60,808 nt of DNA from Acidobacteriota bacterium (GCA_046725935.1 JBKOZO010000090.1:1-60808); one strand, 5' to 3'; counted from the stretch's first letter, positions 34,371-40,580 are shown. Notes: generated by a model from the letters alone, not told the origin. Made by a program: numbers and translations.

Positions 34371-35744
34371 CTACCTGGCTACTGGCGGAGAAGCGTGCGC
34401 GAGCCAACTCCGGAACACAGGAGTCGCGCGGATCGGATCGAAGTCGCTGTCTTTCTCCAGAAAATCGAAGCGGCGAAATCCCTTGGCAACGGCGCGATCG
34501 AGGTCCTTGCACGCCTGCGAGGCGTCCCCGAACCGCGCGGCGGCGGCCGCGAGGTTGTAGTCCACGTTCGGGTTCTCGGGGTCGATCTCGCCGGCCACGG
34601 AGTAGAGCATCCGTGCTCTCGCGAGCTCGCGCTTGTCGAGCATCTGCTGCGGAAGATAGAAGCCCGTCTGGGCCCTCAGGTTCACCAGGATCCTCTCGGC
34701 CGAGAGCCGCTCCTCGGGAGACGGATCGGACGCCGCCTTCTTTCGAAGAGCCGGAATGCCGAGCTGGGCCGCGACGAAGCCCGGCGCCGGAACCTCCGAC
34801 TGCTCGGCTGCGTGGCGCACGATTCCCGCCAGGCGCGAGAGCGTGGCGCGGTCTCGCTCGTCGCGTGCGCGGGCCTCCCTGACCGCGCTTCGGACCTCAC
34901 GGGATTCGGCGAGGCGCTTCGCGGCGACCTCGGCCTCGGCGGTGTCCACGAGTCCCCGGAAGTCCTCGGCCGCGTACGCGTAGAGCGCCGCCGCTTCCGC
35001 CGCCCGGCCTCCGGTCTCGGCGGCGCGGGCTGCGGACGACGCCTCGGCGTACAGCGACGCGATCCGCTCGCCGTCGCGGGGTCTCGTGCCGGCCTTCATC
35101 GCTTCGAGCTCCATCCACACGATTGCGGCGCGAGCGACCGGTTCCGGCGCCCACTGGTGCGGACCGTCGAAAAACGCGATGCGATGGGAGGCCTTGACCG
35201 CCGAGAGCTTCTCGTCGAGGGAGCGCATCTCGTAATAGTTCATGTCCCGGTCGCCGACCGTCCCGAAGAATCCGAAGGACGGGGCCTGGCGGATCGGCGC
35301 CGAGGCGTGCGGGAAGCCGGCGCCGCAGCCGATGACGCCGGCAAACACCTTCGGAAGCTCCAGCGCCATCGCGACGGAGGCGCGGCCTCCTCCCGAGAAA
35401 CCGCCGATGTAGGTGCGGCGCTCGTCGAGCGAGAGCGTGGCGTGCGTGTCCTTCCACATCGCGCGCATCGCCGGCGTGTTCGGATCGTCCCTGGTATCGC
35501 TCTGCGAGTTGTAGGAAGAGACCAGGATCCAGCCGAACTCCTCGGCGGCGGCGCGAAACCGCTCGATCGGCACGAGGGCGTTGCCACGGGCGTCGAGCAG
35601 GTAGAGGACCGGCCATGCCCGAGACGCGGAATAAGCGGACGGAAGGGAGAGCGCGTAGCTCTGGTCCGGGGCATCCTTGCAGACGATCTTTTCCGTCACC
35701 TGGCCGGGCGCGAGCGCGGCCACGAGGGCGAGGGCGGCGATCAC
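34371..35744 (-). CDS. Secreted alpha/beta hydrolase-like protein with C-terminal TPR
   Basis: GTG at 35744 overlapping the gap stop; GGFSGGG elbow, GDRD, FDGPH; TPR-like DYNLAAAAAR. Confidence 0.75.
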   Translation of the reverse strand: MIAALALVAALAPGQVTEKIVCKDAPDQSYALSLPSAYSASRAWPVLYLLDARGNALVPIERFRAAAEEFGWILVSSYNSQSDTRDDPNTPAMRAMWKDTHATLSLDERRTYIGGFSGGGRASVAMALELPKVFAGVIGCGAGFPHASAPIRQAPSFGFFGTVGDRDMNYYEMRSLDEKLSAVKASHRIAFFDGPHQWAPEPVARAAIVWMELEAMKAGTRPRDGERIASLYAEASSAARAAETGGRAAEAAALYAYAAEDFRGLVDTAEAEVAAKRLAESREVRSAVREARARDERDRATLSRLAGIVRHAAEQSEVPAPGFVAAQLGIPALRKKAASDPSPEERLSAERILVNLRAQTGFYLPQQMLDKRELARARMLYSVAGEIDPENPNVDYNLAAAAARFGDASQACKDLDRAVAKGFRRFDFLEKDSDFDPIRATPVFRSWLAHASPPVAR

Positions 35745-36748
35745 GATCCCAGGGCGGCGAGCCGGTCCAGCAGATCCACGACGCGGCAGGAGTAGCCCCA
35801 CTCGTTGTCGTACCACGCGACGACTTTGACGAAGCCGTCTCCCTCGGCCCGCGTCGAGAGCGCGTCGAAGATCGAGGAGTGCGGGTTGCCGATGATGTCC
35901 GAGGAAACCAGCGGCACCTCGCTGTACTCGACGATTCCCGACAGCGGACCGCCGGCTGCTTTCTTCACGGCGGCGTTGACGTCGGCGGCGGACGGCTTCG
36001 CGCGAACCCGGCAAGTCAGGTCCACGATCGAGCCGTCGGGCACAGGCACGCGCATCGCCATTCCGTCGAGCCTGCCGGCGAGCCCGGGCAGGACCTTGCC
36101 GACCGCGCGAGCGGCACCGGTCGTCGTCGGAATGATGTTCTCCGCGGCGGCGCGGCTGCGCCGCAGATCCTTGTGCGGCACGTCGGCGAGGCGCTGGTCG
36201 TTGGTGTAGGCGTGGACCGTGGTCATCAACCCTTCTTCGATACCGAACGCGTCGTCGAGGATCTTCGCGACGGGAGCGAGGCAGTTGGTCGTGCAGGACG
36301 CGTTGGAGACGAGGCGGTGCGACGGCGAAAGCGTTCGGTCGTTGACGCCGACGACGATCATCGCGTCGATCTCGTCCTTGGCCGGAACGGTCAGGATCAC
36401 CCTCTTCGCGCCCGCCGCGAGGTGCTTCTCGAGGTCCTTGCGCGTCAGGAGCTTGCCCGTGGACTCGACGACGATTTCGACGCGGTGCTCCTTCCACGGG
36501 ATCTTCGAGGGGTCCTTCTCGGAGGTCATCTCGGTGCGGCGGCCGTCGACCGTCATGCTCTCGGCGTCGGTCTTCACGTCTCCCGGAAAGACTCCCATCA
36601 CGGTGTCGTACTTCAGGAGGTAGGCGAGGTGGTCGTTGTCGTAGAGATCGTTGATGACGGCGACCTCGACGTCGCGGCGCTCGGCGAGGATGCGAAAGAC
36701 GGTACGGCCGATCCGCCCGAATCCGTTGATCCCGACGCGCACCGTCAT
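35741..36748 (-). CDS. gap: Glyceraldehyde-3-phosphate dehydrogenase, type I
   Basis: GINGFGRIGR, SNASCTTNCLAP, TTVHAYT, IPTTTGAA, MRVP, WYDNEWGY. Confidence 0.97.
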   Translation of the reverse strand: MTVRVGINGFGRIGRTVFRILAERRDVEVAVINDLYDNDHLAYLLKYDTVMGVFPGDVKTDAESMTVDGRRTEMTSEKDPSKIPWKEHRVEIVVESTGKLLTRKDLEKHLAAGAKRVILTVPAKDEIDAMIVVGVNDRTLSPSHRLVSNASCTTNCLAPVAKILDDAFGIEEGLMTTVHAYTNDQRLADVPHKDLRRSRAAAENIIPTTTGAARAVGKVLPGLAGRLDGMAMRVPVPDGSIVDLTCRVRAKPSAADVNAAVKKAAGGPLSGIVEYSEVPLVSSDIIGNPHSSIFDALSTRAEGDGFVKVVAWYDNEWGYSCRVVDLLDRLAALGS

Positions 36749-37761
36749 GCGGTCGCCTCCGCGGCGGCATAGCGCGCGACGAGCTCGACGGCGCGGTGCG
36801 CGTAGCCGTAACCCGAGTCGAACCAGGACAGCGTCTTGGAGACGCGATCCCCCAGCGCCATCGTGGCGAGCGAGTCGAACGTGGCCGAGAAGGGCGTGCG
36901 CGCGACGTCCGAGGAGACGATCGGCTCGGTCTCGAACCGGAGAATGCGCTTCCAGCGTGGATCCTCGGAGGCGGACCGGAGCGCGTCGTTGACGGTGGCC
37001 GCGGTGACGGGCTTCTCGTGCCACGTCACGAGGTCCACGACCGAGCCGTTGGACACCGGCACGTTCATCGCGTATCCGGTCAGCCGCGGGGCCAGCGACG
37101 GCAGCAGCTCCGCGAGCATTGCCGGAGAGCGGGACTCCTGCGGAATGATGTTCTCGGCCGCCGCGCGTCCGCGCCGCTTGTCCTCCGCCGGCACGTCCGC
37201 GAGGTGGTGGGCGCTCGTGTAGGAATGGATCGTGGTGAAGATCGCCCGCTGCGTCGTGAACGCCTCGTCCAGGATCTTCAAGACCGGCGCGAGGCAGTGC
37301 ACCGTGGAGGACGCGTTCGAGACGATCTGCTGGTTGGGCGAGAGGGCGTCGTCGTTGACTCCGGCGACCAGCGTGACGTCCGCGGGCTCGAGCGGCGGCG
37401 CCATCAGGATCACTCGCCGGGCGCCCGCCGCAAGGTGCGCCTCCGCGTCGGCGCGCGTGCGGCCGCGCGACGTCGCTTCGAAGACCGTGTGGACGCCGAG
37501 TCCCGCCCAGTCCGGAACCGGAGGCTGATCCTTGCCGGTGATGAGGGCGATTCGCCGGCCGTCCACGACGAGGCTTCCGTCCTTCGCGGCGACCTCGCCG
37601 GGAAAGCGGCCGAGGAGGGTGTCGAGCTTGAGCAGATACGCGAGCCCCGCCGGCTCGGCCAGATCCGCCACGGCGGCCACACGCATGTCCTCCCGCTCGT
37701 GAAGGATGCGGAAGAGATTGCGGCCGATCCGCCCGAACCCGAAGATGCCGACCGCCGTCAT
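36745..37761 (-). CDS. GAPDH-like paralog lacking the catalytic Cys (probable pseudoenzyme)
   Basis: GIFGFGRIGR, but SNASSTVHCLAP, IPQESRSP, MNVP, WFDSGYGY. Confidence 0.88.
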   Translation of the reverse strand: MTAVGIFGFGRIGRNLFRILHEREDMRVAAVADLAEPAGLAYLLKLDTLLGRFPGEVAAKDGSLVVDGRRIALITGKDQPPVPDWAGLGVHTVFEATSRGRTRADAEAHLAAGARRVILMAPPLEPADVTLVAGVNDDALSPNQQIVSNASSTVHCLAPVLKILDEAFTTQRAIFTTIHSYTSAHHLADVPAEDKRRGRAAAENIIPQESRSPAMLAELLPSLAPRLTGYAMNVPVSNGSVVDLVTWHEKPVTAATVNDALRSASEDPRWKRILRFETEPIVSSDVARTPFSATFDSLATMALGDRVSKTLSWFDSGYGYAHRAVELVARYAAAEATA

Positions 37762-37800
37762 GCCGGAATGTCTACCATACTGAAGATAATTCGGGTTCCG

Positions 37801-37920
37801 CCGTCATCCTGAGCGCAGCGAAGGATCCTGGACTCAACAAGCCACAGAGGCAATCGAGTACGGGATCCCTCGTCGCGGAGCCTGCCCTGAGCGAAGTCGA
37901 AGGGCTCCTCGGGATGACGG
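37801..37920. repeat. REP-like palindromic element, family 1, with a nested CCCTGAGCGAAGTCGAAGGG hairpin
   Basis: Both arms match 9450-9528; the inner insert replaces the tgcg loop. Confidence 0.8.
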
Positions 37921-37938
37921 GCGCTGAGGAGGTGACGA

Positions 37939-38412
37939 ATGCGCGTAGGTCGTTTGGGATGGCTGGCGGCGGCGGTGCTGGCGGGCGCCGGCGCGTTTGC
38001 GGCGGCTGCGGAGCAGGGGTCGGCGAAGGATAAGGCCGAACTGCTGCGAACCGACGCCGAGTTCTCCGACGCGGCGCAGAAGGTCGGCATCGCCGCAGCG
38101 TTCGTGAAGTACGCCGATCCGAACGCCGTGATGCTGCCCGCCAACGAGAATCCCGTTACGGGCGCCGACGGAATCCGCAAGCAGTTCGCCGACCTGCCGG
38201 CCGGCACGACGCTCACGTGGAAGCCCAACAAGGCGGAGGCCGCCGCGTCCGGAGACCTGGGGTACACGCTCGGCAGTTACGTGCTGCGTTCGAAGGACAA
38301 AGACGGCGCTCCGATCACGCGCTACGGCAAGTACTGCTCGATCTGGAAGAAGCAGCCCGACGGAAGCTGGAAGTGGGTCGTGGACGTGGGCACGCCGTCG
38401 CCGGCGCCGTAG
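37939..38412 (+). CDS. DUF4440/YybH NTF2-like secreted protein
   Basis: Signal peptide; LTWKP, SGDLGYTLG, GKYCSIWKKQPDGSWK. Confidence 0.88.
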   Translation: MRVGRLGWLAAAVLAGAGAFAAAAEQGSAKDKAELLRTDAEFSDAAQKVGIAAAFVKYADPNAVMLPANENPVTGADGIRKQFADLPAGTTLTWKPNKAEAAASGDLGYTLGSYVLRSKDKDGAPITRYGKYCSIWKKQPDGSWKWVVDVGTPSPAP

Positions 38413-38463: not shown

Positions 38464-39615
38464 ATGCGAAAGATCGTCTGCGCCGTCTTAGTCCTCGGTC
38501 TGCTCGGTTCTCCCGCTCGCGCGGCGGACAAGCCGCGGGCCCGCGACCTCGGCGTGCCCTTCGAGGGAACGACGGGGCCTCTCAACGCGATCACCGACGT
38601 CAAAGGCGTCGAAGTCGGCGAGAGCACGATCATCCGCGGCGAGGGCAAGCTCGAAGTCGGCAAGGGCCCGGTCCGCACCGGCGTGACCGCGGTGCTTCCG
38701 CGCGGCGCTCGTTCCAACGACGATCCGGTCTTCGCGGGCTGGTTCTCCCAGAACGGGAATGGCGAGATGACCGGAACGACCTGGCTCGAAGAGTCCGGAT
38801 TCCTCGAGGGGCCGGTGATGATCACCAATACGCACAGCGTCGGCACGGTGCGCGACGCCGTGATCGCCTGGCGCGTGCGCCATGGGGGAGCGGACCAGAC
38901 CGGCTACTGGTGGTCCCTTCCCGTCGTGGCCGAAACCTGGGACGGCGAGCTGAACGACGTCAACGGATTCCACGTGAAGGCCGAGCACGTCGATGAGGCC
39001 CTGGGCTCGGCGCGCGAAGGGGCGGTCGCCGAGGGCAACGTCGGCGGCGGCACCGGAATGGTCTGCTACGGGTTCAAGGGAGGCATCGGCACCGCGTCGC
39101 GCCGCCTTCCGGAACCGGCCGGGGGCTACACGGTCGGCGCCCTCGTCCAGTGCAACTGCGGCCGCAAGTCGGATCTCCTGATCGCGGGCGTGCCCCTGGG
39201 GCGGGAGCTCGCCGGCAAAGGAACTCGCGATGAGGATTCCGGATCGATCATCATCGTCGTCGCGACCGATGCGCCGCTTCTGCCGCACCAGCTGAAGCGA
39301 CTCGCCCGCCGCGCGACGATGGGGCTCGCGCGCACGGGCTCCAGCTCCGGGAACGGATCCGGGGACATCTTCATCGCCTTCTCCACCGCCAACCCCGGAG
39401 CGGCGAAGACCACGGGGAACGTGACGCCGACGATGCTGCCCAATGACCGCATGAATCCACTCTTCTCGGCGACCGTGCAGGCGGTCGAGGAAGCCATCGT
39501 CAACGCGATGGTCGGGGCCGACACGATGACGGGCGCCAACGGCGTGACGGTGCGCGCCCTGCCGCACGACGAGCTGCAGAAAGCGCTGAAGAAGTACAAC
39601 CGGCTGACTCCGTAG
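38464..39615 (+). CDS. dmpA: DmpA / peptidase S58 family aminopeptidase
   Basis: RARDLG, GVTAVLP, ETWDGELND, EGNVGGGTGM, autoprocessing site GNGSGD. Confidence 0.92.
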   Translation: MRKIVCAVLVLGLLGSPARAADKPRARDLGVPFEGTTGPLNAITDVKGVEVGESTIIRGEGKLEVGKGPVRTGVTAVLPRGARSNDDPVFAGWFSQNGNGEMTGTTWLEESGFLEGPVMITNTHSVGTVRDAVIAWRVRHGGADQTGYWWSLPVVAETWDGELNDVNGFHVKAEHVDEALGSAREGAVAEGNVGGGTGMVCYGFKGGIGTASRRLPEPAGGYTVGALVQCNCGRKSDLLIAGVPLGRELAGKGTRDEDSGSIIIVVATDAPLLPHQLKRLARRATMGLARTGSSSGNGSGDIFIAFSTANPGAAKTTGNVTPTMLPNDRMNPLFSATVQAVEEAIVNAMVGADTMTGANGVTVRALPHDELQKALKKYNRLTP

Positions 39616-39663
39616 GGGCGGGGCTCGTCCCCGCCCAGGGGCGGCCGCGAGGGCCGCCCCTAC
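39612..39663. repeat. GTAG-type REP doublet between convergent genes
   Basis: GTAGGGGCGGGGCTCGTCCCCGCCC...GGCCGCCCCTAC; both flanking stop codons lie in the GTAG ends. Confidence 0.85.
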
Positions 39664-40469
39664 GGAAGATCGGACAGGAGCTTCTCCCATTCCCGCCAGT
39701 ACGCTTCGCCGCCGGTGACGTACGTGTCGTTGTGGCCGGCGCCGGGAATGACGAAGAGCGTCTTGGGCGGCGGCGCGCGCTCGTAGAGCTCGCGCCCCTG
39801 CGACGCTGGAGCGATCTCGTCGCGCTCCGCCACGAGAAACAGCTTGGGCGCGGAGATCGCGCCGATCTTCGCGGCGCTGTCGAAGCGGCTCCGGACCAGA
39901 AAGCGCGGCACGAACGGGTAGTGCACGCGGGCCATCGCGAGGATCGAGTAGAACGGCGTCTCGAGGATGAGACCGCCGCAGGGTTTCTCGGAGGCGAGAT
40001 CGATCCCGACGGCCGATCCGAGCGACTCGCCGAAGACGAGGATCCGCTCCGGCGGGAACCCGCGCTCGAGGGCCGCGGCGTAGACGGCGCGCGCGTCGCG
40101 GTACAGGCCCTCTTCGTCGGGGGAGCCCGACGACCGGCCGTAGCCGCGATAATCCACGAGAAAGACGTCGAGGCCGAAGCGGCGGTTCAAGATCCGCGCG
40201 CGGTCGAGACGGTCGGAGGCGTTGCCGGCGTTTCCCTGGAAGAAGAGCAGCGCCCGCTTTCCGCCGCCCCGAATGCGCCAGCCTCGGAGAACCACTCCGT
40301 CGCTGGAGGGAAGTGTCAGCTCCTCGGACGTCAGACCGAAGGAATCCGGGGACGCCGACAGGACCCGGCTCGGGAAGTAGAGGAGCTGATTCTCCAATCC
40401 CCAGAGGATCGCCAGAAGACCCCCCGCCGTCGCCAGGAGCCACGCCGCGGCTTTGGTGCCGCGCCTCAC
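39660..40469 (-). CDS. Alpha/beta hydrolase (ABHD13/Bem46-like)
   Basis: FFQGNAGN, DYRGYG, GESLG, GAGHND; GTG at 40469 preferred (alternative start 40508). Confidence 0.88.
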   Translation of the reverse strand: MRRGTKAAAWLLATAGGLLAILWGLENQLLYFPSRVLSASPDSFGLTSEELTLPSSDGVVLRGWRIRGGGKRALLFFQGNAGNASDRLDRARILNRRFGLDVFLVDYRGYGRSSGSPDEEGLYRDARAVYAAALERGFPPERILVFGESLGSAVGIDLASEKPCGGLILETPFYSILAMARVHYPFVPRFLVRSRFDSAAKIGAISAPKLFLVAERDEIAPASQGRELYERAPPPKTLFVIPGAGHNDTYVTGGEAYWREWEKLLSDLP

Positions 40470-40484
40470 GTTTCTCAATATACT

Positions 40485-40580
40485 TCGGTGGGAGAGGTCG
40501 TCAGGCACGTGACCGGGGGCAACTCCGCGATCCCGAGCTTCCTCGGCGCCAAGCGCATGGACGGAATCTCGCGCGATTCC
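40485..40580 (+). pseudogene. 96-bp remnant duplicate of the internal dinB coding region
   Basis: 89/96 identical to 41817-41912. Confidence 0.85.

Follow-up and report, generated by a model that had tools for sequence, protein, structure and literature searches.

A widespread GAPDH-family paralog, translationally coupled to gap, as a candidate non-catalytic partner of bacterial GapA

The 60,808-nucleotide stretch of an Acidobacteriota genome analyzed here (GCA_046725935.1, JBKOZO010000090.1:1-60808; hereafter the window) carries on its minus strand two consecutive genes of the glyceraldehyde-3-phosphate dehydrogenase (GAPDH) family. The downstream gene, here called gene B, encodes a canonical type I GAPDH (gap; GapA), and the upstream gene, here called gene A, encodes a GAPDH-fold paralog that lacks the catalytic cysteine together with residues of the phosphate site. 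The two proteins are 49% identical over 330 residues. A profile search of the genome's proteins returned them as the only Gp_dh_C matches, so that B, which is canonical at all 14 key residues considered below, is the genome's sole canonical GAPDH. A preliminary description of the locus, made from the DNA alone, had portrayed A as a full-length gene overlapping gap by ATGA, and this is indeed what is found. The coordinates of the pair, of its informative motifs, and of the adjacent features are collected in Table 1.

Table 1. Features of the A–B locus (positions counted from the first nucleotide of the window)
Feature	Position	Strand	Remarks
Gene A, GAPDH-fold paralog without catalytic Cys and phosphate-site residues	36745..37761	-	338 aa (P0001); stop codon included
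Gene B, canonical type I GAPDH (gap)	35741..36748	-	335 aa (P0002)
TCC codon, Ser152 of A, at the Cys149 position	37306..37308	-	
QESRSP in place of TTTGAA, Thr208/Gly209 anion site	37123..37140	-	Gly209 replaced by Arg211
AAC codon, Asn233 of A, at the Arg231 position	37063..37065	-	
Ser-Gly of A at the Asn313-Glu314 positions	36811..36816	-	
GFGRIGR dinucleotide-binding loop of A, kept	37720..37740	-	Columns nearly invariant in the A family
CAT codon of A, His176 equivalent, kept	37225..37227	-	
S-loop of A, ADVPAEDKRRGRAAAENIIP, kept	37141..37200	-	
Coupling signal, GGAGG followed by ATGA	36745..36760	-	GGAGG at 36760-36756 inside the 3' end of A; ATGA at 36748-36745
Adjacent esterase-like gene, outside the conserved module	34371..35801	-	Start GTG 35744 or GTG 35801
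Intergenic region upstream of A, toward the divergent DUF4440 gene	37762..37938	.	Presumed promoter region of the A–B operon

Four losses in A had been singled out in the preliminary description, and the alignment with B bears out each of them: the Cys149 equivalent is a serine (SNASSTVHC in A versus SNASCTTNC in B), the phosphate site is changed (NIIPQESRSP versus NIIPTTTGAA), Arg231 is lost (AMNVP versus AMRVP), and so is Asn313 (WFDSGYGY versus WYDNEWGY). Taken position by position, the A protein of the window keeps Arg195 and has Asn for Arg231, Ser for Thr208, Arg for Gly209, and Gly for Glu314. The GFGRIGR loop, His176, and the S-loop are retained, as had also been claimed, and the same is true of Asp33, the Asp32 equivalent beyond GFGRIGR, of Tyr320, the Tyr317 equivalent, and of the equivalent of Thr179. 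The losses are not due to chance, nor are they a sequencing error, a point on which the preliminary description was likewise right, since they recur in 20 related genomes and in all 120 of the best database homologs of A (65–96% identity, all metagenomic), which keep the variant motifs almost letter for letter.

Relatives of A turned out to be numerous. A search of 1.84 billion cluster representatives found many Cys149-less GAPDH-like proteins among its closest relatives, and 240 loci came from three scans of contigs (one genome per species) that used distant members of the A family as seeds; together with the loci of the relatives, these provided 194 complete A–B pairs. In a FastTree phylogeny of the 194 A proteins, the 194 B proteins, and 47 unpaired canonical GAPDHs, the A proteins, with that of the window among them, form a single clan devoid of canonical GAPDHs (support 1.0); IQ-TREE recovers this clan from a dereplicated set with a Shimodaira–Hasegawa-like approximate likelihood ratio test (SH-aLRT) value of 100. 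By record title, the pair-bearing loci fall under 12 phylum labels (Acidobacteriota, Fidelibacterota (Marinimicrobia), Fibrobacterota, Eiseniibacteriota, Krumholzibacteriota, Latescibacterota, Gemmatimonadota, Bacteroidota, Pseudomonadota, Actinomycetota, Myxococcota, and Bdellovibrionota), and 50 more loci bear no phylum label. Such labels are taken from records of metagenome-assembled genomes (MAGs) and can be wrong, but the pair is clearly spread over multiple phyla despite possible mislabelling. Within the window's phylum its distribution is patchy, with about 31–33 of the 251 sampled genomes (~13%) carrying it, and in the window's class it is present in about half of the sampled genomes.

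We scored 14 catalytic, substrate, and cofactor positions in both proteins. B is canonical at all of them in essentially all 194 partners, the exceptions being two ambiguous X calls; the A proteins differ at 3 to 9 positions. Glu314 is missing in 209 of 209 A proteins, and Arg195 and Arg231 are kept together in none of the 209. Gly209 survives in only 7 of 194, the position being occupied by Trp in 91, by Arg and Asn in 26 each, and by other residues in the remainder, while Arg231 has become Asn in 169 of 194. Position 149 is far less uniform: nine different residues occur there (Ser in 101 proteins, Cys in 60, Ala in 16, and others), and it drifts between Ser, Gly, Arg, and Pro within the window's own order and subclade. 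Parsimony on the tree makes Cys149 ancestral in the A family, with at least seven independent losses and 22 residue changes. The signature of the family is the loss of Glu314, of Gly209, and of one of the two substrate-phosphate arginines, and not the Cys-to-Ser replacement. The systematic deactivation emphasized in the preliminary description is thus real in its residue losses, but its most conspicuous element is no family hallmark, given that 60 of 194 A proteins keep Cys149.

Cys149 has been lost time and again, with the gene, its conservation, and its coupling to gap all surviving the loss, and it is therefore not needed for the conserved function. The second cysteine of the motif is no substitute. 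Cys153 is not conserved in the family (Ala in 93, Val in 58, Cys in 39), and this residue, which the preliminary description had considered as a possible alternative nucleophile, cannot serve as one in A when it is Ala or Val in most relatives. The repeated loss of Cys149 and the variability of Cys153 together argue against catalysis based on either cysteine and against Ser152 as a nucleophile; as substitute nucleophiles, Ser152 and Cys156 of A were both ruled out, neither position being conserved in the family. Judged by its residues, GAPDH catalysis by A is excluded.

What the A family keeps is as consistent as what it has lost. GFGRIGR, Asp32 (Asp or Glu in 100%), Ser148, Thr150, and Thr179 are retained, His176 is present in 192 of 194 proteins, and position 208 is Thr or Ser in 98%. 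The S-loop core RRxRxAAENIIP and the WxDxxWGY motif are likewise kept, with R196, R199, N204, and P207 of the S-loop invariant among 67 A proteins. Asn313 is Ser in the window's clade and Asn in 166 of 194 family members, and NAD (nicotinamide adenine dinucleotide) binding by A is putative. A column-by-column comparison of 54 dereplicated A–B pairs gave 63 columns that are conserved and identical in A and B and 92 that are conserved in B and relaxed in A, the latter concentrated at 149–159, 208–220, Arg231, and Glu314. Conservation is higher in A than in B at only 11 columns, and a single one is a conserved switch (G173 to A); the A family as a whole thus has no new catalytic constellation. 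Individual subclades nevertheless have fixed pockets, with Q-x-S-R-S, His155, and Asn233 in the window's clade and Trp209 in others, and Q-x-S-R-S is a constant feature of the Thermoanaerobaculia subclade. At the S-loop positions corresponding to Leu185 and Leu187 of the B. stearothermophilus enzyme, A and B share Ala and Val, and sampled unpaired GAPDHs mostly have Leu; we take Leu187 and Pro188 to line the cofactor site of the neighboring subunit (cf. the title of the mutant entry 1DBV).

Profile scores and structure prediction agree with a GAPDH fold outside the canonical enzyme family. A matches Pfam Gp_dh_N (E = 4e-24) and Gp_dh_C (E = 2e-41), but with 293.2 bits against TIGR01534 it falls below the cut-off of 367.2, whereas B lies above it with 441.6 bits. 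Nor does A, lacking Cys149, reach the cut-offs for erythrose-4-phosphate dehydrogenase (TIGR01532; 234.9 bits, cut-off 530.6) or ArsJ-associated GAPDH (NF033735; 240 bits, cut-off 450), and NCBIfam holds no model for the A-type paralog. An AlphaFold2 model of A built with a 67-sequence family alignment reached a predicted local distance difference test (pLDDT) score of 91.5 and a predicted template modeling (TM) score of 0.89, and the control model of B is of equal confidence (pLDDT 91.6). With Foldseek, the A model can be superposed on GAPDH structures along its entire length, the TM scores to 1GD1 being 0.92–0.94. The best sequence matches to A in the PDB are the engineered C149S and C149A mutants 1NQ5 and 1NPT, and no natural Cys149-less GAPDH is found among the best-matching entries. 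The S-loop (residues 181–210) is the only poorly predicted part of the A monomer (pLDDT 51–64). We considered this as a sign that A depends on a partner, and dropped the idea because the B control shows the same dip. In GAPDH the S-loop forms the tetramer core, and the models fit this role, in that the S-loop of both A and B seems not to be fixed by the monomer.

The A gene is maintained much as gap is. More than 200 genomes have it as an intact, full-length frame, and the ratio of nonsynonymous to synonymous substitution rates (dN/dS; Nei–Gojobori, 12 genome pairs) is 0.10–0.29 for A and 0.07–0.21 for B. Over 18,721 comparisons, the divergence rate of A is about 1.45 times that of B, itself among the slowest-evolving proteins. 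The distance matrices of the two proteins are correlated with r = 0.84, and none of 500 Mantel permutations gave a value as high. The preliminary description had made its case depend on A being neither strain-specific nor neutral in dN/dS, and A is indeed widespread and under purifying selection. On this comparative evidence, A is an ancient functional gene under purifying selection similar to that on gap.

The linkage between the two genes is equally persistent. Canonical gap lies immediately downstream of A in all 194 complete loci. Measured from the end of A, it begins at -4 nt in 128 of them and at -1 nt in 24, and in about 172 it begins no further away than +5 nt. Closer to the window, A directly precedes canonical gap in all 20 related genomes, which belong to its genus or to two further families of the order, and the same 4-nt overlap is seen in 20 of the 21 loci of the order, window included. 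Where no partner was detected, the A gene was at a contig end or was followed by a B gene that is frameshifted in a long-read assembly, so every A gene with enough downstream sequence precedes a canonical gap. Such split B genes were seen at loci L015, L027, L034, L055, and L067, in few-contig and probably long-read MAG assemblies, and the frameshifts are most likely assembly indels, not real pseudogenes. Start and stop overlap in 125 of 135 Cys-less pairs versus 31 of 60 Cys-keeping ones. In the window, a GGAGG Shine-Dalgarno motif inside A lies 8 nt upstream of the gap start, and 175 of 195 pairs have a similar motif within the 3' end of A, compared to 10% of random 14-mers inside A.

An ancient paralog held by purifying selection, which has lost its chemistry but kept its fold, its NAD site, and its oligomerization elements, and which is almost universally coupled to gap, points to a non-catalytic partner subunit. 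We therefore favor, at a probability of roughly 55%, the reading that A is a non-catalytic GAPDH-fold subunit co-translated with GapA into a mixed tetramer. According to this model, A and B would be translated from one mRNA, and a ribosome terminating at the UGA of A would already be positioned at the gap AUG, which overlaps that stop and has GGAGG 8 nt before it, so that coupled translation would deliver the two proteins at the same place and in similar amounts. On the pattern of the 222-symmetric GAPDH tetramer, they would then assemble into a mixed tetramer, for which A2B2 is the simplest composition. In GAPDH tetramers, the S-loops of neighboring subunits are packed together at the core, each lining the NAD pocket of the other. 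The thiohemiacetal and acyl-phosphate chemistry would be left to B alone, and A, which keeps a remodelled polar anion pocket (Ser151, Thr153, His179, Thr182, Arg197, Ser210, and Arg211), would have a structural or allosteric role, tuning the cofactor binding, cooperativity, or regulation of B. Assembly with B, its stoichiometry, binding of NAD or other ligands by A, and an effect on activity are all features that we infer from sequence. The interpretation given in the preliminary description is in this sense partly supported, and the points of it that can be tested in silico all favor it.

Several observations weigh against a mixed tetramer. B keeps every canonical residue and looks self-sufficient, and its unpaired relatives work as homotetramers. 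With A in only ~13% of the phylum's sampled genomes, B-type enzymes in principle need no A. The B partners do not form a clan apart from unpaired GAPDHs, pairs of the Cys-keeping subclade often have spacers of up to 88 nt, and the correlation between the A and B distances is expected from shared descent alone. Finally, no natural A–B fusion protein was found among the 150 representatives examined; the long hits gave only multi-GAPDH polyproteins and canonical GAPDHs extended at the N or C terminus.

Three side observations belong here. We propose no separate lineage of B-type enzymes: FastTree suggested that the unpaired GAPDHs are one clade nested among the B partners, but IQ-TREE groups 19 B proteins with 27 unpaired ones (SH-aLRT 97). 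Seven residues tell B from the sampled unpaired GAPDHs. One canonical Acidobacteriota gap without an upstream A (L077, 2504-3490) nests among the B partners beside L065_B, and A may have been lost secondarily at that locus. The long proteins P0126 (2089 aa) and P0208 (1455 aa), which have four and two tandem canonical GAPDH domains per chain, have no relation to the A–B pair and are probably polyproteins of eukaryotic origin.

It is also conceivable, though we consider it unlikely, that A works outside the GAPDH tetramer, as a stand-alone and probably homotetrameric binder of NAD(H) or a metabolite that is co-expressed with gap and serves as a regulator, a buffer, or a moonlighting RNA- or protein-binding factor. 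The conservation of the NAD motif, Asp32, His176, Thr179, and the anion-site residues Ser148, Thr150, and Thr208 would suit such a role, some pairs are spaced and do not overlap, and a fully canonical B could well be a normal homotetramer. However, a near-universal start/stop overlap across phyla is typical of the subunits of one complex, A keeps the S-loop and other tetramer elements that it has in common with B, and gap follows A wherever there is sufficient downstream sequence.

Less probable still is an enzyme of another chemistry that has no need of Cys149, for example, one with dehydrogenase, reductase, or phosphatase- or esterase-like activity, acting through His179 and the rebuilt pocket on a glycolysis-related metabolite. 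Within the subclade, the pocket has been remodelled and not randomized, as seen from Q-x-S-R-S, His155, and Asn233, which are conserved in the 120 homologs. His176 remains in 192 of 194 A proteins and is still paired with Cys149 in 60 of 194. Nevertheless, the replacements at 209 and 149 vary between subclades, the 54 pairs show one conserved switch and 11 columns with higher conservation in A, and the cysteine was lost at least seven times without loss of the gene or of its coupling. The missing catalytic residues and the TIGR01534 score under the cut-off might also suggest a duplicate in decay, an incipient pseudogene, or an artefact of assembly or sequencing. This is already refuted by the comparative data, namely the intact frame in more than 200 genomes, the dN/dS of 0.10–0.29, the conserved variant motifs, and the monophyletic clan under 12 phylum labels.

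The non-catalytic partner reading can be extended, albeit more tentatively and with the odds somewhat against us, to the glycolytic GAPDH of a sizeable part of the bacterial tree. In many Acidobacteriota, in Marinimicrobia/Fidelibacterota, in Fibrobacterota-related candidate phyla, and in some Bacteroidota, Actinomycetota, and Pseudomonadota, this enzyme might be an obligate mixed tetramer of GapA and the ancient paralog, whose former active site would have become an allosteric pocket sensing NAD(H) or a phosphometabolite, a change marked by the repeated loss of Cys149.

GAPDH is among the most studied enzymes and the standard example of a homotetramer. Full-text literature searches returned no description of such a GAPDH paralog or of a non-catalytic GAPDH subunit, and public records name A-type proteins either type I glyceraldehyde-3-phosphate dehydrogenase or NAD-binding domain-containing protein. 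A is a member of a widespread and hitherto undescribed variant of the GAPDH family, which most likely serves GapA as a non-catalytic partner. If this is true, it is a new type of subunit in the central carbon metabolism of many mostly uncultured phyla, and a bacterial counterpart of the eukaryotic prozyme or regulatory-subunit paradigm. In bacteria that are abundant in soil and ocean, it could reveal a so far unknown layer of control over the flux through glycolysis and gluconeogenesis. Due to the public annotation of A, MAG-based metabolic reconstructions include as a GAPDH a protein that is almost certainly inactive as one. The A family also constitutes a natural experiment on which parts of the GAPDH fold are needed beyond catalysis.

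The surroundings of the pair are less conserved than the pair itself, and no universal third neighbor gene exists across the pair loci. In 17 other Acidobacteriota loci (L035-L053 and others), a phosphofructokinase-like gene (pfk), recognized by the motifs GGLCPGINN, TIGGDGT, and PKTIDND, follows directly downstream of B, which places the module in a glycolytic operon there. With B as the only canonical GAPDH, the pair of the window operates in central metabolism. The genome's pgk sits on a different contig, unlinked to gap, and lies (contig C18:5728-6852) inside a 637-codon open frame that suggests a pgk-tpi fusion like that of Thermotoga. In scans of 34.0–38.5 kb for promoters, terminators, and Rfam families, we found no sigma-70-like consensus, terminator, or Rfam match.

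Downstream of gap, the preliminary description had placed a coupled hydrolase-TPR gene. An open reading frame does start at or before the gap stop, either at GTG 35744, with a GTGA overlap with that stop, or at GTG 35801, with an overlap of 61 nt. Its product looks exported and esterase-like, with the N-terminus RRPGIVIAALALVAALA and an Ala/Arg-rich helical C-terminal half, but the Pfam esterase families match just below their cut-offs, and no TPR match was returned. As it is found downstream of gap only within the genus, it was ruled out as a third partner. Upstream of the pair lie a DUF4440/SnoaL-like gene (37939-38412, plus strand), a peptidase S58 (DmpA-like) gene (38464-39615, plus strand), and an alpha/beta hydrolase gene (39660-40508, minus strand), an arrangement that is kept within the genus only.

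Among known systems, A most resembles in structure the type I GAPDH itself (GapA, EC 1.2.1.12, e.g., Geobacillus stearothermophilus 1GD1), with which it shares the two-domain fold, ~45% identity, GxGRIGR, Asp32, His176, Thr179, and the S-loop. Unlike type I GAPDH and its C149S and C149A mutants, A carries natural changes (Cys149 to Ser, Gly209 to Arg, Arg231 to Asn, and Asn313-Glu314 to Ser-Gly). Mixed tetramers of GAPDH paralogs have a precedent in the chloroplast A2B2 enzyme, in which GapA and GapB associate with regulatory consequences (PDB 2PKQ, 7Q53). However, both chloroplast subunits are catalytic, and regulation arises from a C-terminal extension of GapB, which A does not have (338 versus 335 aa).

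Homologous regulatory subunits whose former active site binds ligands are found in yeast NAD-dependent isocitrate dehydrogenase (IDH1/IDH2), F1-ATPase (alpha/beta), and plant pyrophosphate-dependent phosphofructokinase (PPi-PFK; alpha/beta). These are all pairs of paralogous catalytic and non-catalytic subunits in which the latter keep ligand binding, as in the model proposed for A, although their folds and families are unrelated to GAPDH. In trypanosomatids, dead paralogs known as prozymes activate AdoMetDC and deoxyhypusine synthase by forming hetero-oligomers with them (PMC5201418, PMC3663545). Similarly, A is a dead paralog of a central enzyme that is kept under selection beside the active copy, and a hetero-oligomer is proposed. 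The cases differ in that the active trypanosomatid paralog is impaired and its complex has been shown biochemically, whereas B looks competent, the bacterial genes are translationally coupled, and the A–B pair is known from sequence alone. Thus, we regard the prozymes as the closest mechanistic precedents for A and B, with IDH1 and F1-ATPase alpha as further ones.

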